Origin: Candidatus Acidiferrales bacterium
GTDB taxonomy: Bacteria; Acidobacteriota; Terriglobia; Acidiferrales; UBA7541
NCBI GenBank assembly: GCA_963779395.1
Contig: CAVZYC010000002.1
Span: 331,651-395,650, forward strand
Direction of reading: 5' to 3'
DNA: 64,000 bases
This document shows positions 2,653-57,869 of this stretch, one piece after another (position 1 is the first letter of the stretch; each line of letters begins with the position of its first letter). Both the position numbers and the translations under genes were made by a program. Below the pieces are notes generated by a model, which was not told the origin of the DNA, searched no databases, and saw only the letters and a list, made by a program, of their open reading frames with translations.

Positions 2653-4068
2653 CTATCTGCTTGCGGTGGCCGGCGTTTCCACCGGTTCCACAATCAATTT
2701 CAATCCCTCGATGCGCATCACGCGCACCGCTTGTTTTTCCGCAATCGCCACCGGCGATCCAGCGCGCCACAATTCCCCATGAATGCGCACCATGCCTTCG
2801 CCCCCCGCGGCCAGCGCGGTAGTGACAATTCCCTCTTCGCCCAACAATTCCTCTTTGCCGGTCGAGACCTTCCACTGCCTCGATCGCAGCACCAGCCGCA
2901 TTAAAAATACAGCAAGAATCGCGAATGGAATGGTTACCGCCAGCGCAACGCCAACGCTTATTCCTCCCGGCGTCAGCGGCGAACGAATCAGGAACATCGC
3001 GCCGAGTAGCATGGACACAACTCCTCCCACCAGCAACACACCGTGACTCGCCAGTTTGGCCTCAAGCACAAACAACGCCAGCGCCAGAATTATCAGCAAG
3101 ACTCCCGCCAGGTTCACGGGCAACAAATGCATCGCGTAGAGCGCCAGCAGCGCGCAGATTCCCCCGATTACGCCGGGTGCCACAACGCCAGGATGTGTGA
3201 ACTCCGTGTACAGTCCCAGGACACCAACCATCAGCAACACAAAGAAAATATCCGGTTGCACGATGCGCGCCAGAAATTTCTGCCGCCCGGACAATTCAAA
3301 GTCCGCGATGGTGTAGCCTTCCAGCGCCAATTTCTGCGTCTTGCCATCGAAGCGTGTAATCTCCCGCCCGTTCAACTGCTTCAGCAGATCTTCGCGATTG
3401 TTGGCGATCAGATCGATCATGTGCCCGTCCAGCGCCTCTTTTTCGGTGAACGCCCGCGCATCGGTCACGGCGGTTTCCGCAAGTTTGGGGTTGCGTCCGC
3501 GCTTTTCGCTGAAGCTGCGCAAGAAAGCCGTGGCGTCATTATTGATTTTCTTCCGCAACACTTCGTCAATAGGAACGGAAAATCCACCAGGCATCAGGAT
3601 GGGAGTCGAGGCTCCCGTGCGCGTCCCGGGAGCCATCGCAGCCACGTCCGCCGAAAGCAATATGAAAAATCCCGCCGAAGCCCCCCGCGCGCCTGAAGGG
3701 GCCACGTACACGGCCACAGGCACTGACGAGTCCAGAATGTGGTGAATGATCTCGGTCATGGAATCGCTCAGCCCGCCGGGCGTATCCATCAGGATGAGCA
3801 CAAGCGAAGCGTGCCGCTGCGCCGCATCGGTAATCCCCTCGTCAATGTACGTGGCCAGAATCGGCTCAACCATGTCATCGAGTTTCAGTTCCAGCACCAG
3901 CGGCGCGGCGTGTTCATCCGCGGCCGTAGTCGCGGGCGCCACCAGAAAGAACACCACAAGAATTGCGGCAATTGCACAACAAACGATTCCCGCCGCGTAA
4001 TTTCGTTTCTTGCTTCCAGTATTCAATCTCACAATTTGTTTCAAGATCATTAAGCCACGAGCGTTCAT
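2653..4068 (-). CDS. nfeD: NfeD family membrane-bound ClpP-class serine protease (long form)
   Basis: DTPGG and ASAG protease motifs, TM bundle, C-terminal OB-like domain (GELWRA). Adjacent to an SPFH gene, the canonical pairing. Start uncertain. Confidence 0.9.
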   Translation of the reverse strand: MNARGLMILKQIVRLNTGSKKRNYAAGIVCCAIAAILVVFFLVAPATTAADEHAAPLVLELKLDDMVEPILATYIDEGITDAAQRHASLVLILMDTPGGLSDSMTEIIHHILDSSVPVAVYVAPSGARGASAGFFILLSADVAAMAPGTRTGASTPILMPGGFSVPIDEVLRKKINNDATAFLRSFSEKRGRNPKLAETAVTDARAFTEKEALDGHMIDLIANNREDLLKQLNGREITRFDGKTQKLALEGYTIADFELSGRQKFLARIVQPDIFFVLLMVGVLGLYTEFTHPGVVAPGVIGGICALLALYAMHLLPVNLAGVLLIILALALFVLEAKLASHGVLLVGGVVSMLLGAMFLIRSPLTPGGISVGVALAVTIPFAILAVFLMRLVLRSRQWKVSTGKEELLGEEGIVTTALAAGGEGMVRIHGELWRAGSPVAIAEKQAVRVMRIEGLKLIVEPVETPATASR

Positions 4069-5908: not shown

Positions 5909-6721
5909 TCAGGGCTGAACGGTTTCAGGCGGCTTCGGTTCGAGCACTTCCTGAATTTCCGGGTTTTTCAGCACACCCGCAAAGGCGGGATCGGTTTTCG
6001 CGTTCTGCAGATCCTTGTAACCCTCATCACGCGATTTCCGCAAATAAATCAGGCAGCGATCCACATTGCCCGCTTGTGCGAACGATTTTGCCAGCAGGTA
6101 ATAAAATAGCCCGCGGTCCGCGGTCAACGATCGGTCCTGAATCACCGTCCCCGAACGCGATTTTGACTGGTCAAACGCATCCGGATCGTATTGCAATCCT
6201 TTGCGAAACGCCGCAATCGACTCTTCATACTTCTTTTCGCCAAAATAGGCGTACCCCAGGTTCAAATAGAAAGGAGCAAACTCGTCCTTTATCCCGATGG
6301 CCCGTTTATAGGTACGTATGGCCTTCGCATACTTCTTCCGCTCGTACCACACTGTCCCCAGGTTGTTCACCGGATCGGGGTAGTGAGCGTCCAGCGCCGA
6401 TGCTTTCTCATAACACTTCATCGCGCCGTTCAGTTGCATCTGGTTGTGCAGTGAAATTCCAAGCTCATTCCAGTAAACCGCGTTCCCGGGCTCCTTCTGC
6501 GTGAGCTTCCGGAACAGGTCTTCGGCTTCGCGATACTCTTTGCGAACCAGGTACAGTTTCGCTAAGTCTTCCGTAGAGAGGGGCGCATTCTGCGCCGGTG
6601 TCGCGGAGGCGCTGGGAGCCTGCGGCGGCGTGGTGTCTGGAACAGATTGTGCGCGGGAATTCGCGGGAAACCAAAACAACAGAGAAGCAACAACTGGAAT
6701 CGCCAAGGAGTACTTCGTCAT
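5909..6721 (-). CDS. Exported TPR protein
   Basis: Signal peptide; repeats such as YWNELG, PVNNLG and FYLNLGYAY. Confidence 0.8.
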   Translation of the reverse strand: MTKYSLAIPVVASLLFWFPANSRAQSVPDTTPPQAPSASATPAQNAPLSTEDLAKLYLVRKEYREAEDLFRKLTQKEPGNAVYWNELGISLHNQMQLNGAMKCYEKASALDAHYPDPVNNLGTVWYERKKYAKAIRTYKRAIGIKDEFAPFYLNLGYAYFGEKKYEESIAAFRKGLQYDPDAFDQSKSRSGTVIQDRSLTADRGLFYYLLAKSFAQAGNVDRCLIYLRKSRDEGYKDLQNAKTDPAFAGVLKNPEIQEVLEPKPPETVQP

Positions 6722-9306
6722 GGCGAATCTCCTTTGTCCCGATCAGGTTTATCGGGCTCTTTCTTCTTCTTACCCCCAAAGATACCAAAAATCTTCTGCA
6801 ACGGGCCCTTTTTCTTTTCGGTAGCCTGCGCATTGGCCGCCGCGGGCGCCGCAGCTCCTGCTCCGCCTTGCGCAGCCGGCTGGCCCGGAACCGCATTGGG
6901 ATCGCCGCCGGGTTGCGGGGGTTTGGGTGCGCCACCGCCAAAAATATGAGAAAGGAAAGAACCAGCGGCAGTGACTGGTCCATGACCGCCGTGGACTTCG
7001 CAAAGTTGCGTCGGCGCGGAGCCGGTGATGTAAACCTCTTCGCGGGTTACCGGACAGTTCGGGGTGGCCAATTGCAAAGTGTCCGAGTCAATCGTGGCGG
7101 TTTCCACGCCTTCGGGCTTTTCAAAATCCCTGACGTCGCGATAAGCGGGCATGGCCGTGGCTCGAATCATGAAGTCCGCCCAGATGGGCCCGGCCGTCAC
7201 GCCTCCCGTCAGCCCTAAATCGTGATTATCGTCAAACCCGATCCATATCACGCAAAGCAGATTGTTCGTAAATCCTGCAAACCAGCCGTCCCGCGAAGTG
7301 CCCGTCTTTCCGGCCGCCGGCAAATTAAATCCTCGGGCGCGAACCGGTCCCCCCGTCCCTTTGTTCAATACGTCCTGCAAAATGCTGTCCACCAGGTAAG
7401 TGACCCGTGGATCCAGCACCAACTTGTTAGTTGGGGCGTATTTTTCCAGCGCGGTGCCGTTCGAGCTCACCACACTTCTCAGGAACATCGGCTCGGCCCG
7501 TGTTCCCATCGTTGCGAACGCCGTGTACGCCCCCGCAACTTCCACGGGTGTCAATTCGTAAGCCCCCAGCGCCACTGCCGGTGTCGGTCGTATGTTGTTG
7601 GGCAGCCCCATCTGCCGGGCAATCTGCACCACGCGCCCGTAACCCACCAGCTCCGCCACTTTCACGGTAGCCACGTTCAGCGAATGCGTCAGCGCTTCAC
7701 GCACCGTTACTTTCCCCATGAACCGCTCACCGTAATTGTTAGGCGTATATTCCTGCCCGTCGAACTCAAAAACAGTGGGCTCGTCATCCACGGTCGTGGC
7801 GGGCGTGACCACAGGCAGCGCGCCATCAACCGCATTATTGAAAGCCGCCGCGTACACAAATGGTTTGAAGACCGACCCGGGCTGGCGATGAGCAAGCGCA
7901 TGGTTCAACTGGCTCTGCCCATAGTCTCGTCCGCCGATCAGCGCCTTGATCTCCCCGGTTCGCGGATCCAGGGCCACCAGCGCTGCTTGTGCCTGTGGAA
8001 TAGGCTCGCTGGGAGCGTTCTTGCCCTTCGCCTTTTTCAGCTTCTCGTACTTTTTGGCAATCAGCTCATCCACATTCTTCATGCCCGCTTCAACGGCCAG
8101 CGCAGCGGCGCGCTGCAACTGCGGGTCCAGCGTCGTGTACACGCGATAATTTTGGCTGAGCAAATCCTGCTCGGAGTACTCGTCCAACAAATGGTCCTTC
8201 ACCATGTCCACGAAATACGGCGCTTCATTCCCCGCAACCGCCGTGCGTCCCAGCTTCAGTGCCGCCCTTTTTGCGTCCTGTACGTCGGCTTCATTGATGT
8301 ACTTGTTTTCCAGCATCTGCGCCAGCACGCGGTCTCGCGCCTGCGCCGCTCGTTCCGGATGCCGGTCTGAAGCGGAATAATAATTGGGCGCGCGAATCAG
8401 CCCCGCAAGAAAACTGCACTCCGCAAGATTCAATTGCCGGAGGTCTTTACCGAAATAAGCCTCGCTGGCTTCCGCAAACCCGCGAATCCCAAAGCTGCCG
8501 CGGTTGCCCAGATAGACTTCATTGGCGTACAGCTCGAAGATCTGCTGCTTGGAAAAACGCTGCTCCAATTCCAAAGAAAGCATGGCCTCCGATAGCTTCC
8601 GGCGCCACGTGCGATCCGTCGAGAGGAAAAACGTCCGCGCCACCTGCATGGTGATCGTGCTGGCGCCCTGCAGGTGCTGGCTGTGCCGGATGTCCGCCCA
8701 GGCCGCGCCAAAGATGCGGATAAAGTCGAACCCGGGATGCTCAAAGAAGCGCTTGTCTTCCGCGGAAAGGATGGCCTGCACCAGCAGCGGAGGCAGATCC
8801 TCATAACGCACCGGACGGCGCTTCTCTCGCGCGCTATCAAACAGATTCGTGATGAGCTCCGGCTCCAGCTCCGCGCTCCCCAAGTCTCCCCCACCCGCCA
8901 GCGGCCGGATGGAACGGACAACCTTGCCGTTGAACTGCACCGTAATGCCGTTGCCCTCCCCGAAATAAGAAAGCTTCGACGGCCGAATCGTCACCGTGTT
9001 CCCTTCCACGGTGTATTGCCCCAACGAATTTTCGCTGTCATCGGCGCGGTAGCCCACTCGTTGCATGTACATCACCAGATCATCGAGTCCCCAAGCCTGC
9101 CCGTCTGTGATGCGTTCCGGAGCGGAAAAAATCTGCGTGGTGTTCTGGAGCACGCGCCCGGAAAGGCGCGCGTCAATCATGTGGGAATATTTAATGTAAA
9201 AATAAGTGAAGGCGCCGGCGGTAAGCAGAAAGCACAACGCCACCATCGCCAGCAGTCCGATCCCAATTCTGGAAGTCCAAAAACCCTGTTGCAAGCGAAA
9301 TCGCAA
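6718..9306 (-). CDS. mrcB: Bifunctional transglycosylase/transpeptidase, class A PBP (PBP1b-like)
   Basis: GT51 motifs EDKRF and GASTITMQ; transpeptidase SVFK, SLN and KTG motifs; extra domain after the TM as in PBP1b. Confidence 0.9.
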   Translation of the reverse strand: MRFRLQQGFWTSRIGIGLLAMVALCFLLTAGAFTYFYIKYSHMIDARLSGRVLQNTTQIFSAPERITDGQAWGLDDLVMYMQRVGYRADDSENSLGQYTVEGNTVTIRPSKLSYFGEGNGITVQFNGKVVRSIRPLAGGGDLGSAELEPELITNLFDSAREKRRPVRYEDLPPLLVQAILSAEDKRFFEHPGFDFIRIFGAAWADIRHSQHLQGASTITMQVARTFFLSTDRTWRRKLSEAMLSLELEQRFSKQQIFELYANEVYLGNRGSFGIRGFAEASEAYFGKDLRQLNLAECSFLAGLIRAPNYYSASDRHPERAAQARDRVLAQMLENKYINEADVQDAKRAALKLGRTAVAGNEAPYFVDMVKDHLLDEYSEQDLLSQNYRVYTTLDPQLQRAAALAVEAGMKNVDELIAKKYEKLKKAKGKNAPSEPIPQAQAALVALDPRTGEIKALIGGRDYGQSQLNHALAHRQPGSVFKPFVYAAAFNNAVDGALPVVTPATTVDDEPTVFEFDGQEYTPNNYGERFMGKVTVREALTHSLNVATVKVAELVGYGRVVQIARQMGLPNNIRPTPAVALGAYELTPVEVAGAYTAFATMGTRAEPMFLRSVVSSNGTALEKYAPTNKLVLDPRVTYLVDSILQDVLNKGTGGPVRARGFNLPAAGKTGTSRDGWFAGFTNNLLCVIWIGFDDNHDLGLTGGVTAGPIWADFMIRATAMPAYRDVRDFEKPEGVETATIDSDTLQLATPNCPVTREEVYITGSAPTQLCEVHGGHGPVTAAGSFLSHIFGGGAPKPPQPGGDPNAVPGQPAAQGGAGAAAPAAANAQATEKKKGPLQKIFGIFGGKKKKEPDKPDRDKGDSP

Positions 9307-46378: not shown

Positions 46379-47565
46379 AGCGGACCATCGCCGTTGTCAC
46401 ATCCTCGCGCGCCGACTACAGCCATCTCTATTGGCCCTTGCGCGATTTATCGCAAAACGATTCCGTGGATCTCAAAATCGTCGTAATGGGCCCGCACCTT
46501 TCGCCCGAGTTTGGCCACACCATTCAGGAAATCGAGAAAGACGGCTTTCGCATTGATGCGCGCGTCGAATGCCTACTCAGCTCCGATAGCGATGTTGGCA
46601 TGGCCAAGACGATTGGCGTTGCCGTCCTCAGTCTGGCCGACCTGTTTGGACGCCTGCGCCCGGATTTGCTTCTCGTAATCGCCGATCGCTACGAAATGCT
46701 GGCCCCCGCTTCCGTGGCCTTGGCCTTGCGTATTCCCATCGCGCATATCGAAGGCGGAGAAATCAGCGAAGGCGCGATTGACGATGCCGTGCGCAACTCC
46801 TTAACAATGATGAGCCACATTCATTTCACTTCCACCCATTCCGCGCGGCAAAGAGTTATCTCACTGGGCGAAGAAGAATGGCGCGTGCACCGCGCGGGAG
46901 CGCCCTCTCTCGATCATCTGCGGCGTCGAACTCTGTTCACTCGCGAAGAACTCGCATCGAAGTTGCACGCCGATTTTTCCGCGCCACCGCTGCTCGTCGC
47001 CTATCATCCCGTAACGCTGATGCGCGACACGCTCGCGGAATCGGATGCGCTCTTCGCCGCTCTGGAAGCCCTGCCCGACAACATCCTGTTTTGCTATCCG
47101 AATGCCGATGCCGGAAGCCGCGCCTTAATCGAACGCAGCAAATCCTTCCTGGCCTCTCGCGGCCGCGGCGCCATTTTTACAAACCTCGACGCCATCACCT
47201 ATTGGAGTCTGTTGCGTCAAGTCAAAATGCTAATCGGGAATTCCAGCAGCGGCATCATGGAAACGGCATCCTTCCAACTTCCCACCGTGAATATCGGCAT
47301 ACGGCAACAGGGCCGCGAACGCGCCAGGAATGTTTTAGACGCCGCCGCGGAAAAAGCCGCCATCCTGAAAGCCATCGAAATCGCAGCCTCCCCCGAATTC
47401 CGCCAATCGCTAGCGGGCATGACGAACCCCTATGGCAACGGCCACGCCTCCGAAAAAATTGTCGAAGTGCTGACCACCGTGCCGCTGACGCCAGATTTGC
47501 TGCTGAAACGTCACTCCCCGCTCATCAACGCCAATGATCGCACCGCCAAATCAAGTGCCCGATGA
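46375..47565 (+). CDS. neuC: UDP-N-acetylglucosamine 2-epimerase (hydrolysing), NeuC/LegG-type
   Basis: TSSRADY, ADRYEML, HIEGGE.SEGAIDD, YPNADAG, GNSSSG, NPYGNG. Confidence 0.92.
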   Translation: MKRTIAVVTSSRADYSHLYWPLRDLSQNDSVDLKIVVMGPHLSPEFGHTIQEIEKDGFRIDARVECLLSSDSDVGMAKTIGVAVLSLADLFGRLRPDLLLVIADRYEMLAPASVALALRIPIAHIEGGEISEGAIDDAVRNSLTMMSHIHFTSTHSARQRVISLGEEEWRVHRAGAPSLDHLRRRTLFTREELASKLHADFSAPPLLVAYHPVTLMRDTLAESDALFAALEALPDNILFCYPNADAGSRALIERSKSFLASRGRGAIFTNLDAITYWSLLRQVKMLIGNSSSGIMETASFQLPTVNIGIRQQGRERARNVLDAAAEKAAILKAIEIAASPEFRQSLAGMTNPYGNGHASEKIVEVLTTVPLTPDLLLKRHSPLINANDRTAKSSAR

Positions 47566-48749
47566 AAATCCCCCTCTCCGCTCCAGACATAAATCAAGAT
47601 GACATCGCTGCCGTTGAAGCAGTTCTGCGCACCCCGCACCTGAGCCTGGGTCCGAAGCTTGCGCACTTTGAAAATGCCGTCGCCAGTTACATCGGCGCGC
47701 CTCACGCCATTGCTGTGAGTTCGGGCACAGCCGGCCTCCATCTCTGCATCCGCGCACTGGGCATCGGCGAAGGCGACGAAGTGATTGTGCCTTCCTTCAC
47801 CTTCATCGCCGTGGCCAATGCCGTGGCCTACGAAAAAGCCATTCCCGTTTTCGTTGATATCGAGCCGGAAACGCTGAATCTCAACCCGTCGCGCATCGAA
47901 GCGGCCATCACGCCCAGAACCAAAGCGATTCTAGTCGTCCACACTTTCGGCTGCCCCGCCGATTTGCCCGCCATCATGGAGATCGCTCGCCGTCATCAAC
48001 TCCGCGTAATCGAAGATGCCTGCGAATCCATCGGTGCGGAATTCGATGGCCGAAAAGTTGGCGCCTGGGGCGATCTGGGAGTCTTCGCGTTCTACCCAAA
48101 CAAGCAAATCACCACCGGCGAAGGCGGAATGGTGGTCACGCACGATCCCCAAATCGCTTCCACAATTCGCGCGCTTCGCAATCAGGGCCGCACCAACACC
48201 AACGACTGGTTTCAACATTCCGAAATTGGCTACAACTATCGCCTGCCAGAAATGAGCTGCGCGCTGGGCATCAGCCAACTGAAACGAATCGATGCGATCC
48301 TGCAGCGCCGCCAGGAAATCGCAGCAAAATATCACAACAAACTAAAATGTATCGCAGGCCTCAAGCTTCCGCCATTGGAAGTGCCACGCCGCAAATTAAG
48401 CTGGTTCGTTTACGTGGCTCGCCTTGGCGAAAAATTTTCGCAAATCCATCGCGACTGGATCGTAAGCGAAATGCACCGCCGCGGAATCCCTTGTGCCCGG
48501 TATTTCGCGCCCATCCATCTGCAACCAGCCTATCGCTCCACTCCTAAGTCGCAAACGCATTTGCCCGTAACAGAATCCGAAGCGTCTCGCTGTTTAGCCC
48601 TGCCGTTTTTCAATCGCTTGGAAGATAACCAAATCAACGAAGTCTGTGAAAATCTAGGCGAGCTTCTTCAACTGACGGCCAACAAATCAACACAAGAACT
48701 ATCGCCAAATCTCCCGCCAGATGTCCTGGCGCAAAATTCCCCGGATTGA
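47562..48749 (+). CDS. DegT/DnrJ/EryC1/StrS PLP aminotransferase
   Basis: SSGTAGLH, VIEDACE, FYPNKQITTGEGG, GYNYR. Confidence 0.94.
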   Translation: MKIPLSAPDINQDDIAAVEAVLRTPHLSLGPKLAHFENAVASYIGAPHAIAVSSGTAGLHLCIRALGIGEGDEVIVPSFTFIAVANAVAYEKAIPVFVDIEPETLNLNPSRIEAAITPRTKAILVVHTFGCPADLPAIMEIARRHQLRVIEDACESIGAEFDGRKVGAWGDLGVFAFYPNKQITTGEGGMVVTHDPQIASTIRALRNQGRTNTNDWFQHSEIGYNYRLPEMSCALGISQLKRIDAILQRRQEIAAKYHNKLKCIAGLKLPPLEVPRRKLSWFVYVARLGEKFSQIHRDWIVSEMHRRGIPCARYFAPIHLQPAYRSTPKSQTHLPVTESEASRCLALPFFNRLEDNQINEVCENLGELLQLTANKSTQELSPNLPPDVLAQNSPD

Positions 48750-48781
48750 AAAATGGCGGATGAGCCTGTAAGCCGGATTCT
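48746..48781 (-). repeat. Displaced copy of the rnpB 3' end (att site)
   Basis: TTGAAAAATGGCGGATGAGCCTGTAAGCCGGATTCT versus 52368-52403; 20-bp identical core GAGCCTGTAAGCCGGATTCT. Confidence 0.88.
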
Positions 48782-49004
48782 TTGGGCTGTTCTTTGCTTT
48801 CAATAAGTTGCGTAAAATCAATAAACAAAGACTGGCAAAGAAGTCAGTTCTGGCAGCTAAAACAGGTTTCATGGCACAGTTATGTCACAGTTTTCTACCG
48901 GAATTCTTGACGTTGGTTCAATGATTACAAGCGCGTTTATGGGGACCAATCCTGAAAACGAAGCACAACCCAAGGTCAATGAGTGCATTGCTCTCAATGG
49001 GCCA

Positions 49005-49211
49005 TCAGGCCGCCCATTCATCGAATCGGCGCATAATCTCCATGAGCTTGCATCCCATCAGAATGACAGAGCCCCACAATATGAAGGGAACGCCATAGAG
49101 TAGGAGATGCTTGCGCGAACGGGCTAACTCAAACACTCCTACCTTCACGATGGCGTATGTATTCGCTGCTAGATAAGCAACCGCCAAAGAGCTCACTACT
49201 AGGTTGTGCAT
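49005..49211 (-). CDS. Possible small two-TM protein
   Basis: Two hydrophobic stretches; no recognised family. Confidence 0.3.
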   Translation of the reverse strand: MHNLVVSSLAVAYLAANTYAIVKVGVFELARSRKHLLLYGVPFILWGSVILMGCKLMEIMRRFDEWAA

Positions 49212-49288
49212 CTTCTTAGTCCTCCTTTTACCGGCCTGCATCTCCGCGCCGATACTCTTCGGTTAGCTCATCAAGCGAGGTCCACACC

Positions 49289-50035
49289 TTAGAGTTGAGA
49301 CCATCCTCCGTCTACCGGAAGCTCGGCGCCGGTCGTGAAGGTTGCGTCGAACGCGAGGAAGAGGACGGCCTTCGCGATTTCCTCCGACGTCCCCCAGCGC
49401 TTCATGGGAACCATGCCGATCATCTTCTCTCTAAGCTGGGCGGCCGCGTATTTCTCGGGGAACATCTTGCCCAAGATCGGCGTGTCGATGGGGCCGGGCG
49501 TCACCGCGTTGACTCGAATCTCGCGAGGAAGCAGCTCGGCGGCGAGCACCCGGGCGAATGATCGCAGCGCAGCCTTGGCGGCTCCGTATGCGGCGTTGCC
49601 GGGCATTCCCTTGACGTTGGCGATCGAGGTCGTGAGGACGACAGAGCCTCCCCGGTTTATTAACGGCGTGAGCTTCTGCACCGCGAAAAGCGGTCCCTTG
49701 GCGTTCAGGTTGAACATCTCGTCGTAGACAGCCTCGGTGATGCTCTCGAGAGGCGCTCGGATGCTGAACCCGGCGTTGACGAAGAGCAGGTCGAAGGTGT
49801 CGAACTCGGCCTTCACCCGAGAGGCCAGGGCGTCGAGGTCCGTCAACGAGCGCGCGTCGCTCGAAACCACGAGGGCGCCCTTCCCAAGCTCTTTCTTGGC
49901 CGAATCCAGGCCTGCCTGCGACCGACCCGTCACCAGAACACGTGCACCCCCATCGAGGAGCATCTTCGCCGTCGCGAGCCCCATGCCGCTCGTGCCGCCG
50001 ATAATCACCACCTTTTTATCTTGGTACCGTTCCAT
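49289..50035 (-). CDS. Short-chain dehydrogenase/reductase
   Basis: IGGTSGMG, FVNAG, YGAAK, RVNAVTPGPIDT. Confidence 0.95.
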   Translation of the reverse strand: MERYQDKKVVIIGGTSGMGLATAKMLLDGGARVLVTGRSQAGLDSAKKELGKGALVVSSDARSLTDLDALASRVKAEFDTFDLLFVNAGFSIRAPLESITEAVYDEMFNLNAKGPLFAVQKLTPLINRGGSVVLTTSIANVKGMPGNAAYGAAKAALRSFARVLAAELLPREIRVNAVTPGPIDTPILGKMFPEKYAAAQLREKMIGMVPMKRWGTSEEIAKAVLFLAFDATFTTGAELPVDGGWSQL

Positions 50036-50072
50036 ATGTATTCTCCTTGCGAGGTTAGGGTTGCTTTGCTGA

Positions 50073-50145
50073 TTTTGAACTGTTTGGTATGATAATCAGG
50101 TGCGGAGACTGCGGTCAAGGGATTTTTGAACTATTTATTTCAAAA
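50073..50145. promoter_or_regulatory. Two candidate TetR operators
   Basis: TTTTGAACTGTTTGGTATGATA and the palindrome TTTTGAACTATTTATTTCAAAA; homologous to 51278-51347. Confidence 0.6.
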
Positions 50146-50182
50146 TACCGTAAGACCCCGTGGACGACCGCGTAGCTCCGAA
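50135..50182 (+). pseudogene. 5' stub of a deleted tetR paralog
   Basis: Translates QNTVRPRGRPRS versus QNPPRPRGRPRS at the N-terminus of the intact TetR. Confidence 0.7.
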
Positions 50183-50234
50183 ATCGCATGCTGATTCTGG
50201 TCACCGCAACCATTTCGCCGCGACCGGCGCTCCT

Positions 50235-51209
50235 TCAGGACACCGCGCTTAAGGACGCTGTGGAAGACAAGTCGACGCCGGAGACCTTGACGACGGCCTG
50301 CCACGCGGCTTCCTGGCTGGCGCGATCGTGGAGGTGTGGCTGGCGCTGCACCTCAATTGGGCCTGAGAACTTCCCTTGAGCCGAGGCGAAGAATTGCCCT
50401 GAGACGTCGGTTCCGAACTCCGACGCCTGGAGGTACCGACGGGCCGCGGTCTCCGGCGTCTGATTCATGCCGGGAATGAGGTTCACGATTGGGATAAACA
50501 GATACTTCAACGCCGGGCCAGCGTTTCGCACCACCTTGGTGGCGGTCGCCCCACCGGGCGAGACAGCGTACACGGCCATGCCGGAGGGTAGCCGGCGCGC
50601 CAGCGCCGCGACCCACCAAGCGATAATGAGCTTCGCGTCGGCATACGCATTGTTGGGCACGTACTTCACGTTTGGCCCGTTGCGAATCAGGGCTTCGATA
50701 GCGGCGGTCCGGTCTCCCCGGAAGTATTTGGCCGCGAAGGCTGGCACGTCGGTGTAGCTGAACATCGGCACGCCCCCACGGGCAGGTTCCGCGCCGGCGA
50801 TGACAATCCGCGCGTTGGGGCTCAGCAGGTTGGCGCGGAGCAACCCGACAGTCAGTTGATGATGGCCGATCAGCGGGGCCTGAGCCTCCTCGATGCCCGC
50901 CGCAGTGAGCACGCGCTTCTTACCTGGGACCATCCCGGCATTGAGCAGTAGGAAATCGACCGGCCGACCTCGCTTGACCAGCTCGGCGAGGGCGGATTGA
51001 ACGCTGGACGGCGTGTCCAAATCCAGCTCCAGCGGCGTGAAGACCTGTGTCTTGGTCTCAGCCGCGAGCTGAGCGGCCGTTTCTTGGACCCGGGCCAGGC
51101 TGCGCCCGGTGACGATGACCTGGCGGTAGCCCTTGGTGGCGAGCATGCTGGCTGCCGCATAACCGAGCCCAGAGGTGGTGCCGGTGACGAGTGCGATCGA
51201 ATGTTCCAT
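50235..51209 (-). CDS. Short-chain dehydrogenase/reductase (retinol-dehydrogenase-like)
   Basis: VTGTTSGLG, LLNAG, YADAK, VSPG. Confidence 0.92.
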   Translation of the reverse strand: MEHSIALVTGTTSGLGYAAASMLATKGYRQVIVTGRSLARVQETAAQLAAETKTQVFTPLELDLDTPSSVQSALAELVKRGRPVDFLLLNAGMVPGKKRVLTAAGIEEAQAPLIGHHQLTVGLLRANLLSPNARIVIAGAEPARGGVPMFSYTDVPAFAAKYFRGDRTAAIEALIRNGPNVKYVPNNAYADAKLIIAWWVAALARRLPSGMAVYAVSPGGATATKVVRNAGPALKYLFIPIVNLIPGMNQTPETAARRYLQASEFGTDVSGQFFASAQGKFSGPIEVQRQPHLHDRASQEAAWQAVVKVSGVDLSSTASLSAVS

Positions 51210-51277
51210 GTGTGTCTCCTTGGTGAAGGGTGAAGATCGAGTCGCGAGGCCCCGCGAGGGCAGAGCCAGCTTGCTAA

Positions 51278-51347
51278 TTTCGAACTATTCAGTTATATAT
51301 TGGTGCGACGGCCATTGTAAAGGAGTTTTGAACTGAATGGTTCAGAA
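51278..51347. promoter_or_regulatory. Two candidate TetR operators in the divergent promoter
   Basis: TTTCGAACTATTCAGTTATA and TTTTGAACTGAATGGTTCAGAA; the second overlaps the tetR start codon. Confidence 0.65.
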
Positions 51348-51972
51348 TCCCCCTAGGCCGCGTGGACGGCCGCGCAGCTTCGACGAGACGGAGGCGCTGG
51401 AAAAGGCGACCCAGGTATTCTGGTCGAAAGGCTACGACGGCGTCACGATCGACGATCTCGTCGCCGGGATGGGCGTGGGAAGGCCGAGCCTGTATGCCGT
51501 CTTCGGCGACAAGCGGGCGATATTCTTGCGCGTCCTTAAGGCGTATGCAGAACGGAAGGGCGCAGCAGCCGCGAAGGCACTCCTCTCGCCACAGGCACTA
51601 CGCGACTCGATCGCGGACTTTCTGAGGTACGCCGTCGAAAGTGCGACCGAGAAAGGGTCCGCCCGGGGCTGCCTTATGATGTGCGTTGCGCCGATTGTGA
51701 ACGACGCTGAGGTCCAGCGGTTCCTGCAGAGCGCGGTCGCGGGCGGCGCGGCGCTGGTGGAGCGCCGTTTCCGGGACGGGATCAGCGCGGGAGACATCCC
51801 GCCTGACTTTCCGGTAGCCGTGCGCGCGATCCAAGTCACGGATTTTGCTCGTGCCCTGACCATGCGTGCGCAGATAGGCACGCCGCGCAAGACGCTCCTC
51901 AAAGAGGCTGAGGAAGCGGCCGACTTGGTCCTCCTGCCGCGCCTGAAGGCCATCGGCAAGCAGAAGCTATAA
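51337..51972 (+). CDS. TetR/AcrR family transcriptional regulator
   Basis: RGRPRSFD...FWSKGYDG...MGVGRPSLYAVFGDK HTH; divergent from an SDR. Confidence 0.95.
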   Translation: MVQNPPRPRGRPRSFDETEALEKATQVFWSKGYDGVTIDDLVAGMGVGRPSLYAVFGDKRAIFLRVLKAYAERKGAAAAKALLSPQALRDSIADFLRYAVESATEKGSARGCLMMCVAPIVNDAEVQRFLQSAVAGGAALVERRFRDGISAGDIPPDFPVAVRAIQVTDFARALTMRAQIGTPRKTLLKEAEEAADLVLLPRLKAIGKQKL

Positions 51973-52377
51973 CTTTCTCTCGCCGGCGCTTGAGCCGGGT
52001 CCTGGCCCTGGGTAATGGCCCCCTACGCGAAGTTCAAAGCACTTCAGGGCCAATCCTCTAAGAAATCTGCTCTCAACATAGTCTGGGGATGTTGAACTTC
52101 GGCGAGCCCCGCTCTAAAGGCTTCATAAAGATAGTGAGCACGCAAGCATTTGGAGATGACTATGTCACTCATCGAGCCCGGATTGGTATTGATATGTCGG
52201 CTTGTGGCCAGTGATCGACACAATCGAAGACTCAAACCGAACGTACATTCCTCAATAATTCGTCGACCAAGAGCACCGCACGCACATGAAACTTGATTCC
52301 GGATGCATCGGGCGCACCGCGCGTGCTGACGAACGCCGAGGCTAGACCAGGTTAGACGCTCAATTCATTGAAAAGAT

Positions 52378-53078
52378 GGCGGGGAGCCTGTAAGCCGGAT
52401 TCTGTCCGCCGCCTGCCTTGCAGCAGTGCGCCGCGACGATCATTCCTCTAGCCCCGGCCTCGCGACCGGGATCCAGCGACCTACCCGAGGGTTCATCATT
52501 CCCATCAGCTTGCGCCTCTGGTAAAGGAGCCGCTGCGCTTGCGCACAGTGCTCAGCGAGCCGGGCCAGCTCTGCCCTCCTATTTGGTCTTGCACCTCGCG
52601 GGGTTTGCCGTGCCCCCGATGTTGCCACCGGGGCGGTGGGCTCTTACCCCACCTTTTCACCCTTACCCGCGTAGCCAACCGTGAAGACGTCCCGAAGGTT
52701 TTCCTTCGAGCTATCACCGGGCTGCTCCGCTGGCGGTATATTCTCTGTGGCACTTTCCGTGACGCCTGTAGCCACCGGCTTTTAACCCGGCACGCAACAA
52801 ACGTCCCCTGGCGTTACCAGGCGCGATGCCCATTCCCTGCTCCTGTAAATGCCGAGCATTACAGGCTGCGGAAAAAATCCTTTCTTTAGGAGGCCGGGGC
52901 TTCAGCCCCGGCGTAAAGCCATTAAAACCACTGGGCTTTAGCCCCTGAAGAAAGTCTTTCTTGCATTTTTCTGCAGCCTCTGTAGCCCGGCATCCGCATT
53001 CGCAAAGTGGTGTCCGGACTTTCCTCCCGCCCAAGCCGCTTGCGCAACTCGGACCAGCGATCGTCCAGCTCACCCGCC
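52378..53078 (-). ncRNA. rnpB: RNase P RNA (bacterial type A), enlarged to about 700 nt
   Basis: Minus strand shows GAGGAAAGTCCGG, CCTGGTAACGCCAGG, GGAAAGTGCCACAGA, GGGTAAGGGTGAAA.GGTGGGGTAAGAGCCCACC, GGCAAACCCC, AGAATCCGGCTTAC, and P1 pairing GGCGGG/CCCGCC. Confidence 0.95.
52863..52979. mobile_element. REP/MITE-like nested hairpin inside rnpB
   Basis: Terminal inverted repeats AGGCTGCGGAAAAA / TTTTTCTGCAGCCT (13/14 match); inner palindromes CCGGGGCTTCAGCCCCGG and GGGCTTTAGCCC. Confidence 0.8.
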
Positions 53079-53119: not shown

Positions 53120-54607
53120 TCAAGAAGTCTGGACGATTGATTCACTCGTAGAGATTGCGTTCTTCGGAAGCGGGAGATACCGAACCAACAGAACTGCAAC
53201 AACGCAGCCCATACCGAGCATGCAGAGCCGGAAATATTGACGAGGAATGAGATCGAGTCGGTCAATCATCGTAGCGTGAGCGAGCACGCTGCTCAATGCC
53301 GCACACACTACGCTCGGCCAAACGGAGCCAGCGGCAAGGGCCAACCACCCCAAAATAACTGACCAGACAATCCCCCAAAGCAGTTGCAGTACAAAATGGA
53401 GGAAGAAATCCGGAAGCGGACCAAACGGCGCCGGAAACTGAAGTTGTTGAGATGACCCGTAGAGAATCCCCACCAAAAAGATGCCACGAAATAATCCAAA
53501 CGTCCGGATAAGCTGGGGCTGTATACAACCACGCCAACACCATTCGCTGAGTCCGGCAGCAAGAGCGAAGAGAACAAAGTCCAGTCCAATGGGAGGTATG
53601 TGTAAATACCACGCTGCTTGAGGCGCGTCAGAGGCATCACTCCAATGTTGCGCCCAGGCGACTCGATCGCCTGCGTAGGCAATCAAATGTGGCAACCAAT
53701 GGACAGCGATGGGTAGCACAACCGCCAGTCCAAGAATGCCAATGGAGGGAAGGCGGGCCGACGCAAGGAGCTGCGCTCGCCGATTCTTGCCCAGGGCCCA
53801 CACCGCAAGCAGGAAGAAGGGCACCGCGTACATCAAGTATTGTCCTGCATAAAACCATGCGCCAAAAGTTTGCGACATCTGGTAAGAGCCGCTGCGGGGA
53901 AACCATATGCAAATCGGGGACAGCAACAAAGAGAGGATTCCACCCCCAAGCCCGAAAAGTGCAAGAGCGTAAATCGCAAAGATTTTCAGGCGGGAGATGT
54001 TTGCATTTGTGTCCTCTGAAGCAACTGGCAAGACGGGGGGGCCGAAATGTGCCGGCAACGAGACCGCGCCTTTCCGAAGCAGCCAGGCGGCCAGAAGAGC
54101 AATCAGCAGACCCAAAACGGCCAGCCGAAATCCGTTGCCCGTGTTTAGAACAAGCCCGCGCAGCGGCAATCGGAACCCGGAGAGCAGCTGTCTATTATGC
54201 TTTTCAAAAATCGATCCAGGGCGTTCGTTCAAAACGATCAGAGCGGGAGCAATCAGTGCGCCCGCGATTCCAACGATAGTCGGGGCAATCACCAGGCCCC
54301 ACCAAGAAGCGGCCACGCGCTCTCGCCGGAAGAGACAGCAGAAATATGCTCCGACACCCGCGATTAATAGCGGAGACGCAAAAAGCTGCGTCAGGAGTAC
54401 CCAGTGTCGAATATCAGCGTTGGAAAGGGGCCCGATGGCGTCCAGAGCTTCCTTGCTCGGCAAAAATAGCCAGCTTCGACCGAAGCAAGCGGAAAGGATA
54501 GCCGCCGCGAGCAAGAAAATAATGTGGTAGGGACTCGCTGGCAGAAGTTGCCGAAGAGTCTTTCTCAAACGAAACCGACGCGGCACGGGGTGCACGAATC
54601 GGATCAT
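53120..54607 (-). CDS. CPBP/Abi family intramembrane metalloprotease homolog, catalytic motifs degenerate
   Basis: Multi-TM; paralog of 55317-56750; motifs read SEWCWRG, YGSSQ and CAALSS. Start uncertain (54607 or 54652). Confidence 0.75.
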   Translation of the reverse strand: MIRFVHPVPRRFRLRKTLRQLLPASPYHIIFLLAAAILSACFGRSWLFLPSKEALDAIGPLSNADIRHWVLLTQLFASPLLIAGVGAYFCCLFRRERVAASWWGLVIAPTIVGIAGALIAPALIVLNERPGSIFEKHNRQLLSGFRLPLRGLVLNTGNGFRLAVLGLLIALLAAWLLRKGAVSLPAHFGPPVLPVASEDTNANISRLKIFAIYALALFGLGGGILSLLLSPICIWFPRSGSYQMSQTFGAWFYAGQYLMYAVPFFLLAVWALGKNRRAQLLASARLPSIGILGLAVVLPIAVHWLPHLIAYAGDRVAWAQHWSDASDAPQAAWYLHIPPIGLDFVLFALAAGLSEWCWRGCIQPQLIRTFGLFRGIFLVGILYGSSQQLQFPAPFGPLPDFFLHFVLQLLWGIVWSVILGWLALAAGSVWPSVVCAALSSVLAHATMIDRLDLIPRQYFRLCMLGMGCVVAVLLVRYLPLPKNAISTSESIVQTS

Positions 54608-54763
54608 TACACAAACATCAAGGCACGGCAATGGCAGAGCAACGAACGCCACATAGCGTTACCAGCCTCGTTGCTCCTCCTGCTATTGCAAACGCCGCCC
54701 TCCATCCCGGTTCCAGTGTTCCTTCTCTCCGTGAATTCTCCGTCTCCGCCCCAACCCACCAAC

Positions 54764-55126
54764 TGTCATCCCGCCTGCCCGCCGCAGGAGGGACCGGAGC
54801 AGCCCGATCTTCCCTTTCGCGTCGTCTTTCGGCGCGTCGCGCTTCGCAGTCGAGGGACCGCGCCACACCACTAAGTCGCGACTCCCACTCCGTTCTTCGC
54901 ACTTCACTTTTCAAGCTTCGATTTTCCAATTTTTCGCTGGTTGCCCCAGGCACGGAGTCTGTGCCTGGGTCTTGCTTTTCTCTTGCCTCTCTCTTGGAAG
55001 TGTACTGGCCGTCCTTTAGCCCGCTTGTTGGGGTCACCGCATCATGTAGCGCAGGGAGAGTCCGCGAGCCCTGCGGCTTTTCTCTTGCCTCCTACTTGCC
55101 CCTGTACATGCCAGCCTTTAGCCCGG
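54764..55126. repeat. Mixed REP-like cluster including two tandem units of about 80-100 nt
   Basis: TGTCATCCC...GAGGGACC elements; units at 54944-55023 and 55045-55126 share GCTTTTCTCTTGCCTC...GTAC...CCTTTAGCCCG, each with its own hairpin. Confidence 0.7.
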
Positions 55127-55259
55127 CATTTCCATCAACAAATCGGCGTCCAGACTTTCCTCCCGTTCACCCTGAGCCGCAACGCCGAAGGGTTCCCCCA
55201 GGTCCACAACACTCAAAGCAAGCCAGCGATCGTCCAGCTCACCCGCCAGCTCCACTATA
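55119..55259 (-). pseudogene. rnpB: 5' fragment of a second rnpB with its -10 box
   Basis: Minus strand TATAGT-6 nt-GGCGGGTGAGCTGGACGATCGCTGG, a different and longer P3, GGGAGGAAAGTCTGGAC, ATGCCGGGCTA. No 3' P4 strand follows. Confidence 0.85.
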
Positions 55260-55316
55260 TCGTGCATTCCACGGCAAAACTGGGCTTTATGCCACCGACG
55301 ACGCGAGCCCAGTAAA

Positions 55317-56750
55317 TCAGGCGGCAGGCTCCGGTCCAGCTTCCGGCTGGGCAGCTAGTTGGGCCTCGGGATCAACGAGAGGCGAGAATCGAAAGAGAAC
55401 GAAAGCGAGCGCGGCCCAAATTGCGACCCGCATCCCACTGTTCCAAGTATTAGTCGAGCCCATTTGCATCACTGCCAGGATATTCCAGACGCCGTGAGCA
55501 ATCGCACCTGGAATAATTGATTTCCAGCGTAGCGTCATCCAGGCAAACACGTAGTTTATCGCCAAGCAGAGCAAGACTCTACTGGCCAAATGGAATAGAA
55601 CTCCGCCAACAGAGAGTCCCGAGTACGAATCAGATCGAAAGTGAAAGGCAGCCCAAATCAACCCGGTCAGAAAGATTCCGCGCTGGAGACCGTAACGGTC
55701 GATGAAGCAGGGCAACAACAGGCCGCGGAAGACTATCTCCTCGGCAAGCCCGACGAAGACTATAAAGAAGAGCAACGGCTGCCACCAACTAGCAAGATTA
55801 AAATAGGTGAACAATTCCGGTGGTCCGAATCTGCCGAAGTCGTATGCCGCCCAGTGAATGCGATCGACGAGGTATTGTGCGGTAGGAAAGAGACCGCTGA
55901 TCGCAACGGGCATGACTAGTCCGACCAATGCAATGCGGAGTTCCGGCAAGCGCAGGGCAATCCGCGCGGAATTTCTTCCGTCCCTTCCCAGGATATAGAG
56001 CGCGAGTCCTGCCAACAGCACGCCGTCAAGCACAGTCGCGATGCTCGTGGATATCGCCCAAAATGTAGGCGAGAGAGACAACGAAACAATGTCTGGAACG
56101 CCCAAGAGCAGGAATGAAACCAATCCAGCCAAGAGGTAGTAGGGGCCAACCAATAGGAATACCAGGAGACGCATCCTCGACCAGGAATCAGCGCAATCAT
56201 CGCGCGGCAATTGTTCGTTTGGCAGACCGAATTGAAGCGACGTCGCACCCAGGGCGAGGCGACTCATGAAGAACAGAATTAGCATCAACCCGAGCGCGCA
56301 GACACTAAACCCTGAAGAGAACTTCAACACGTTCGTCTGCAACCAGTTGATGACATAAACCGCACTGCCCTGTGATTCAAAGATGGATGGTTTCGCTGGA
56401 TTGATCTGGAAAAACTTCCAAAGGATAACAACAAGGCTGAAGACCGTGGGAAAACAAACTGCTAAGAGTACTCGGCGTACAGGTCTCTTCCCTGGCCAAA
56501 AACAAACAAAATAGCCGGCTAACCCCGCGAACATTATGGGGTACGTAAAGGCAACTATGAACCGTCCGGCTTCAAAGCGATGTGTTCCGCTCTGCCACGC
56601 AGTGGATCTGAGACCGAAAGATTCCAGAAGTTCGGTGGGCCACCAAGGAAGGCTCGGCGAAACGAAGAGAAAAACGACACCGAGAAGAAAAACCAATTGC
56701 CAAGGTTCGTTGGGAATCACGGAGCGGAGGAATTCGGCAAGGCGCTTCAT
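55317..56750 (-). CDS. CPBP/Abi family intramembrane metalloprotease, motifs intact
   Basis: AEEIVFRG, WAAFH and AHGVWN motifs; long multi-TM N-terminal extension. Confidence 0.88.
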   Translation of the reverse strand: MKRLAEFLRSVIPNEPWQLVFLLGVVFLFVSPSLPWWPTELLESFGLRSTAWQSGTHRFEAGRFIVAFTYPIMFAGLAGYFVCFWPGKRPVRRVLLAVCFPTVFSLVVILWKFFQINPAKPSIFESQGSAVYVINWLQTNVLKFSSGFSVCALGLMLILFFMSRLALGATSLQFGLPNEQLPRDDCADSWSRMRLLVFLLVGPYYLLAGLVSFLLLGVPDIVSLSLSPTFWAISTSIATVLDGVLLAGLALYILGRDGRNSARIALRLPELRIALVGLVMPVAISGLFPTAQYLVDRIHWAAYDFGRFGPPELFTYFNLASWWQPLLFFIVFVGLAEEIVFRGLLLPCFIDRYGLQRGIFLTGLIWAAFHFRSDSYSGLSVGGVLFHLASRVLLCLAINYVFAWMTLRWKSIIPGAIAHGVWNILAVMQMGSTNTWNSGMRVAIWAALAFVLFRFSPLVDPEAQLAAQPEAGPEPAA

Positions 56751-57422: not shown

Positions 57423-57640
<218 letters not shown>

Positions 57641-57869
57641 GCGAAGACTGGCGCCTCAAGTTGAGAAGAGGGGGCTCACGGGCAGTGTAGTCAAACCTTG
57701 CCGCCCAGCCTCCAATGGAAAATGGCGCAACCCTGCCCCAGTAACCCATTAATCCAAAATGAGTTACCAGGGCCCGGGATCCATTGACGCGATTTAGGAA
57801 GGATGTTACTCTGGTCTCGGTGAATGCTATGAAAGCAACGCCGGTTACACTCGAAGAATAGCTCCTCCC

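Follow-up and report, generated by a model that had tools for sequence, protein, structure and literature searches.

The final segment of rnpB, the gene for the RNase P RNA, is found twice in a 64,000-nucleotide (nt) stretch of DNA from a Candidatus Acidiferrales bacterium, an uncultured soil acidobacterium (contig CAVZYC010000002.1). The whole of this stretch is termed the window, and positions given below are those of the window unless another contig is named. The locus raises the question of how a second rnpB 3′ end came to lie next to an aminotransferase gene, and what the DNA between the two copies represents. The segment at positions 48782–52366 is most probably what remains, after decay, of a tyrosine-integrase integrative element for which the rnpB 3′ end served as the site of attachment to the chromosome. 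An earlier reading of the letters alone, without database searches (the sequence-only reading), had interpreted the segment as an integrase-less island, and that interpretation is supported here. The observations behind it are the duplication itself, the identification of the native copy, an outer arm that is homologous to the arm of an integrase-bearing island, and the presence of eight out of eight examined members of an integrase family at the same site.

A class A RNase P RNA is encoded on the window's minus strand (Rfam RF00010, score 178.9 bits). The 5′ end reported by Rfam, position 52869, is wrong, because an insert of roughly 130–180 nt within the gene led to a misalignment. The P1 5′ strand GGCGGGTGAGC is found at 53078–53068 and marks the true 5′ end, with the P4 5′ strand GAGGAAAGTCCGG following at 53026–53014; thus the gene spans approximately 53078..52379. 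The final 37 nt of the gene (52367–52403) are present again at 48745–48781, and the two copies share an exact 20-nt core, GAGCCTGTAAGCCGGATTCT, at 48762–48781 and 52384–52403. The core occurs twice in the window, and none of 100 shuffled sequences yields a match to it, even when 2 mismatches are allowed. With P1, the displaced tail GCUCAUCCGCC pairs over 11 positions without interruption (−21.2 kcal/mol); the current tail GCUCCCCGCC reaches 10 pairs and needs a bulge of 1 nt (−19.0 kcal/mol). Both the repetition of the terminus 3.6 kb away around a 20-bp core and the better pairing of the displaced copy had been pointed out in the sequence-only reading, and both are reproduced.

Which of the two copies is native is indicated by L001, a metagenome-assembled genome of Candidatus Acidoferrales and the closest genome found. 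Its rnpB is approximately 90% identical to that of the window over alignable parts. L001 shows one rnpB 3′ end and no duplication, and this end, GGCTCATCCGCCATTTTCAAAA, has the sequence of the window's displaced copy. Since the sole rnpB end of L001 matches the displaced copy, the latter is ancestral and the tail now on the gene foreign. The proposal that an incoming element supplied a replacement 3′ end gains from this match as well as from the P1 pairing. L001 does not offer an exact empty site, as 4.6 kb of other genes separate its rnpB from the aminotransferase gene.

By analogy with islands in tRNA and tmRNA genes, the element's own site would have carried a copy of the final 26–37 nt of rnpB, a segment that begins with the P4 3′ strand (AGAAUCCGGCUUA) and includes the P1 3′ strand. 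The strands would have been exchanged within the 20-nt identical core. This would have rebuilt rnpB with a tail supplied by the element and pushed the host's own tail 3.6 kb away, to its place beside the aminotransferase gene. The integrase and its adjoining arm were presumably lost later, and the DNA now present between the sites would be mostly a horizontally travelling module of two dehydrogenase-type genes and a TetR regulator gene.

Metagenome contigs were scanned for the left junction, defined as the core plus the first bases of the island. Besides two chance matches, the scan yields one organism, another acidobacterium, present in three samples (L085–L087), whose rnpB is 78% identical to that of the window. 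The chance matches (L088 and L089) were rejected because they match within coding DNA only and are unrelated. In L086, a perfect 26-nt repeat, GCGGACGGGCCTGTAAGCCGGATTCT (positions 692–717 and 7347–7372 of that contig), bounds a 6.65-kb island, and the repeat begins at the same rnpB base (AGAAUCC) as the repeat in the window. The L086 island encodes a tyrosine integrase (PF00589, 2.8e-19), and 15 nt separate the end of its gene from the 3′ end of rnpB. The integrase is 5′-truncated and corresponds to residues 134–401 of a 401-amino acid (aa) family. The left arms of the window island and of L086 align over approximately 115 nt. The local score, calculated without the 9 nt that the search pattern imposes, is 40, against 17.4 ± 2.9 for shuffled sequences, and none of 1000 shuffles reaches it. 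An integrase-bearing island at the same core, which the sequence-only reading had suggested looking for, thus exists, with the same boundary base and a homologous outer arm.

The two left arms also share a paired motif. In the window, GGCACAG (48873–48879) and GTCACAG (48884–48890) are 11 nt apart, and the counterpart in L086, GGCACG...GGCACA, has the same 11-nt spacing. The distance of the paired GGCAC(A/G) motif from the core is 103 nt in the window and 102 nt in the L086 left arm. On the integrase side, GGCACG(N4)GGGCAC is situated exactly 79 nt from the core in all six integrase loci scanned. From their sequence and placement the pairs look as arm-type integrase sites would, and they are considered putative sites of this kind. 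The likeness of the GGCACAG/GTCACAG repeat to arm sites, remarked on earlier, therefore gains comparative support from the equal distance in L086 and from the recurrence in six family loci.

The 401-aa integrase family has 1,225 homologues at E < 1e-10. Eight distinct members, 58–91% identical, were examined (L086, L090, L093, L094, L096, L098, L101 and L102), and every one of the eight integrases ends 15–17 nt from an rnpB-type core. The core continues into rnpB in seven of the eight loci; the continuation is confirmed by Rfam in six and was read directly from the sequence in L102. Most of the integrase loci occupy the same ligA–rnpB neighbourhood as the window. In L101 (positions 6706–6880), the integrase and an rnpB-type core are followed by non-rnpB DNA with tandem TGGACACTAAA repeats containing paired TGGACAC. 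This could be an attP-like junction of a free element, or a tandem junction of two stacked elements. The L101 DNA beyond the core was also compared as a possible homologue of the left arm of the window or of L086, and this candidate was rejected as there is no homology.

Islands of the family carry HTH_17 excisionase-like genes, Prim-Pol or D5-type primases, resolvases and restriction genes, a gene content that is usual for small integrative mobilisable elements. A SAM-I/IV riboswitch is found inside the integrase-bearing rnpB island L098 (4240–4361). A viral collection shows no match to the 20-nt core and no close relative of the integrase. It is likely that the rnpB 3′ end is the dedicated attachment site of a large clade of approximately 401-aa integrases in soil Acidobacteria (>1,200 homologues), that the carriers of this clade are small islands with primase, helicase and excisionase-like genes, and that the window island is a stripped member, similar to a cis-mobilisable element (CIME), which a resident relative could still move. 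If this is true, the RNase P RNA gene forms a third class of essential structured-RNA target beside the tRNA and tmRNA genes.

Several results weigh against an integrase-mediated origin. The island contains no integrase open reading frame detectable by Pfam, and tblastn searches with six family integrases at very relaxed settings give only noise in the island and in the whole window, so the earlier statement that no integrase remains holds for remnants as well as for intact genes. The right end at 52204–52366 is not homologous to the arm that lies on the integrase side in the family. The tail and trailer now on the gene, CCAUCUUUUCAAU, resemble the native rnpB flank of another acidobacterium as much as they resemble the family attP. 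The far end is known for just one integrase-bearing island, that of L086, and its integrase is 5′-truncated. Neither an empty site, nor a joint that skips the island, nor an excised form is found in soil runs X1, X4, X5, X7, X8, X9, X25 and X26.

The suggestion that relatives might show rnpB directly convergent with the aminotransferase gene is therefore borne out in part: the intervening DNA does vary, L001 having other genes and no duplication, but the direct convergence itself was not found. The island junctions are unchanged wherever the organism appears in the soil runs (X1, X4, X26). From these unchanged junctions and the lack of an empty site or skipping joint, the island is probably fixed and immobile. 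In soil run X5, both island junctions are present (97–98% identical) with another outer flank beyond the displaced rnpB end. Thus the island with its attachment (att) sites occurs in at least two settings.

An origin without any integrase is unlikely, although part of the evidence is compatible with it. The 3′ part of rnpB of a related acidobacterium, along with the DNA downstream of it, would have been added by recombination, either with one end anchored by homology in rnpB and the other joined illegitimately, or by a single crossover of a circularised fragment. By such a route the recipient's own rnpB end would stay behind as a stump. It fits an island that has no integrase and a current tail and trailer that resemble native rnpB flanks. 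It also fits the DNA downstream of rnpB, which differs among relatives, and the region upstream of rnpB, where pieces derived from the 5′ end of rnpB and the 3′ end of ligA are stacked. However, the joint would be expected to fall at random, and the stump instead begins at the same rnpB base as the L086 repeat. The DNA beside the stump is homologous to the L086 arm and has the paired motif equally far along, and the two copies share only 20 nt of identity, which is very short for a RecA-type crossover. A chimeric P19 helix, with a poorly paired 3′ half upstream of the core, would have implied donor DNA beyond the core and favoured homologous recombination. This candidate was rejected because P19 is well paired and similar to that of L001 in an X5 relative that carries this island; the window differs from this relative in the region solely by three C>G changes at 52406, 52407 and 52409.

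Far less probable still, and already disfavoured, is that rnpB was long ago duplicated in tandem and the duplicate has decayed except for a stump, the 37-nt copy, with the genes between being ordinary neighbours. In favour of this, incomplete copies of rnpB are present upstream, at 55247 and 57627. Decay of a duplicate predicts a native tail on the functional gene and a foreign one on the stump, and the reverse is found. Nor would ordinary neighbours be expected to consist of a cargo that travels across phyla as a module at 80–93% nt identity, or to include a left arm homologous to that of an integrase-bearing island.

That elements integrate at the 3′ ends of tRNA and tmRNA genes is a rule found in textbooks, and tyrosine-integrase islands and prophages are reported to occupy these ends as a class catalogued by Islander. 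The rnpB islands are similar in that they target the 3′ terminus of a gene for an essential, structured RNA. The element brings a copy of that terminus and thereby leaves the gene whole, the island lies between direct repeats, and the native terminus has moved to the far side. The integrase gene adjoins the target gene, as seen here in intact relatives. They are unlike them in the target, rnpB, and in the lack of an integrase in the window island. A full-text search of a literature library found no paper describing the use of rnpB as an attachment site. The mechanism proposed for the window is a modest extension of the known one.

CIMEs of Streptococcus thermophilus are said to be att-flanked elements without recombination and transfer genes. 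The window island likewise keeps both att sites, has no integrase, carries unrelated cargo and appears to be derived from an integrase-bearing family at the same site. It differs in host phylum and target gene; only its outer arm is homologous to an integrase-bearing relative, and its mobilisation is putative. The island is best read as a decayed, CIME-like, integrase-less remnant. By comparison with CIMEs it would not move alone, and at most could be moved by a related integrase acting in cis or trans.

Integration hot spots reportedly are also filled by homologous recombination between core genes. The locus resembles these in that the DNA beside rnpB differs from relative to relative, and in that joints upstream of rnpB are recognisable by leftover pieces of flanking genes. 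In contrast, the island at the 3′ side shares an exact boundary and an arm with an integrase-bearing island, which recombination of flanking genes does not predict.

The 3′-end rule for tRNA and tmRNA genes underlies island-finding software. Use of rnpB in an abundant soil phylum would mean that such software misses a class of islands, and that rnpB flanks are a place to look for foreign genes. The decay of an element into fixed cargo is seen in three stages: intact islands, the island with a truncated integrase (L086), and the integrase-less window island. The replaced P1 strand also shows that an essential ribozyme tolerates a foreign and slightly mismatched 3′ end.

Table 1. Coordinates of rnpB, the putative att sites, the island between them and the host flank in the window.
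Feature	Position	Strand	Evidence or remark
DegT-type aminotransferase, host flank, convergent with displaced rnpB end	47562..48749	+	79% aa identity to L001
attR-like site, displaced native rnpB 3′ end: core 48762–48781 and native tail GGCTCATCCGCCATTTTTCAAT	48745..48781	-	
Island left arm, 147 bp, AT-rich (39% GC)	48782..48928		Homologous to L086 left arm
Start of cargo segment, small open reading frames 49005–49241 (-) and 48882–49103 (+), no Pfam match	48929..49288		88% nt identity to L081
Short-chain dehydrogenase/reductase, 248 aa	49289..50035	-	Pfam adh_short_C2, 9.8e-57
Operator-like repeats (TTTTGAACTGTTTGGT type) and leftover copy of TetR gene 5′ end	50073..50181		Repeat search
Oxidoreductase similar to short-chain dehydrogenases/reductases, 324 aa	50235..51209	-	Pfam adh_short, 7.6e-18
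TetR/AcrR regulator, 211 aa, divergent from the dehydrogenase/reductase genes; operator-like repeats 51278–51341	51337..51972	+	Pfam TetR_N
Non-coding right end	51973..52366		51973–52203 partly common to other cargo copies; 52204–52366 in this lineage only
attL-like site, present rnpB 3′ end: core 52384–52403 and foreign tail/trailer GGCTCCCCGCCATCTTTTCAAT (RNA sense)	52367..52403	-	
rnpB, class A RNase P RNA, ~700 nt	52379..53078	-	Rfam RF00010; P1 and P4 5′ strands located; L001 alignment

The features of the locus are collected in Table 1. The 3.6-kb island between the repeats consists of the left arm, small open reading frames, two short-chain dehydrogenase/reductase (SDR) genes, the TetR gene and a non-coding right end of approximately 390 bp. 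The attR-like site at its outer end overlaps the aminotransferase stop codon (48747–48749). The right end lacks the integrase and arm that occupy this place in intact relatives.

Homologues of the TetR protein form more than 100 clusters at 85–94% identity across phyla, and include named proteobacterial (Ralstonia, Rhizomicrobium) and acidobacterial proteins. Metagenome contig L081 carries the segment corresponding to window positions 48929–52203 at 88–93% nt identity in a different setting without rnpB, and the three cargo genes are found at 80–85% nt identity on Paraburkholderia, Methylovirgula and Ralstonia megaplasmids. The soil-run depth over 48862–52047 is 10 to 1,000 times that of the flanks. 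Because of these wide homologues, other settings and read depth, the cargo is a widely exchanged module that does not define the island. Where the cargo occurs in L081, Paraburkholderia and Methylovirgula, no constant mobile gene adjoins it.

On either side of its SDR-SDR-TetR segment, L081 has a copy of an imperfect direct repeat of approximately 22 nt, (ACAAGC)GCGTTTAT..GGACC.ATCC (3198–3225 and 6650–6685), of which only the left copy is present in the window (48925–48950). The cargo module may have its own insertion site inside a small open reading frame (SAFMGTNPEN). The first 65 nt of the TetR gene, together with the upstream operator-like repeats (51278–51383), are duplicated between the two SDR genes (50073–50181). 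This duplication is also present in L081 and thus is an old part of the cargo module.

Within rnpB, the insert of roughly 130–180 nt follows P5 (52831–53009) and is absent from L001 rnpB. Several soil-run contigs skip it, with joints from 52825/52832 to 53008/53009. The clustered C>G changes of the P19 region are seen relative to both the soil-run relative and L001, and weaken the P19 outer stem; the window version of 52406–52409 is confirmed by a contig with 0 mismatches in run X1.

The −10 box and 5′ end of rnpB recur twice more, at 55100–55262 and 57606–57643. The partial copy at 55247 extends through P4/P5 and has a different P3. That at 57627 consists of 22 nt fused to a second copy of the 3′ end of ligA (57606 to ~57430). 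Two diverged genes for CPBP/Rce1-like membrane proteins (56750..55317 and 54652..53120) are situated between the partial rnpB copies.

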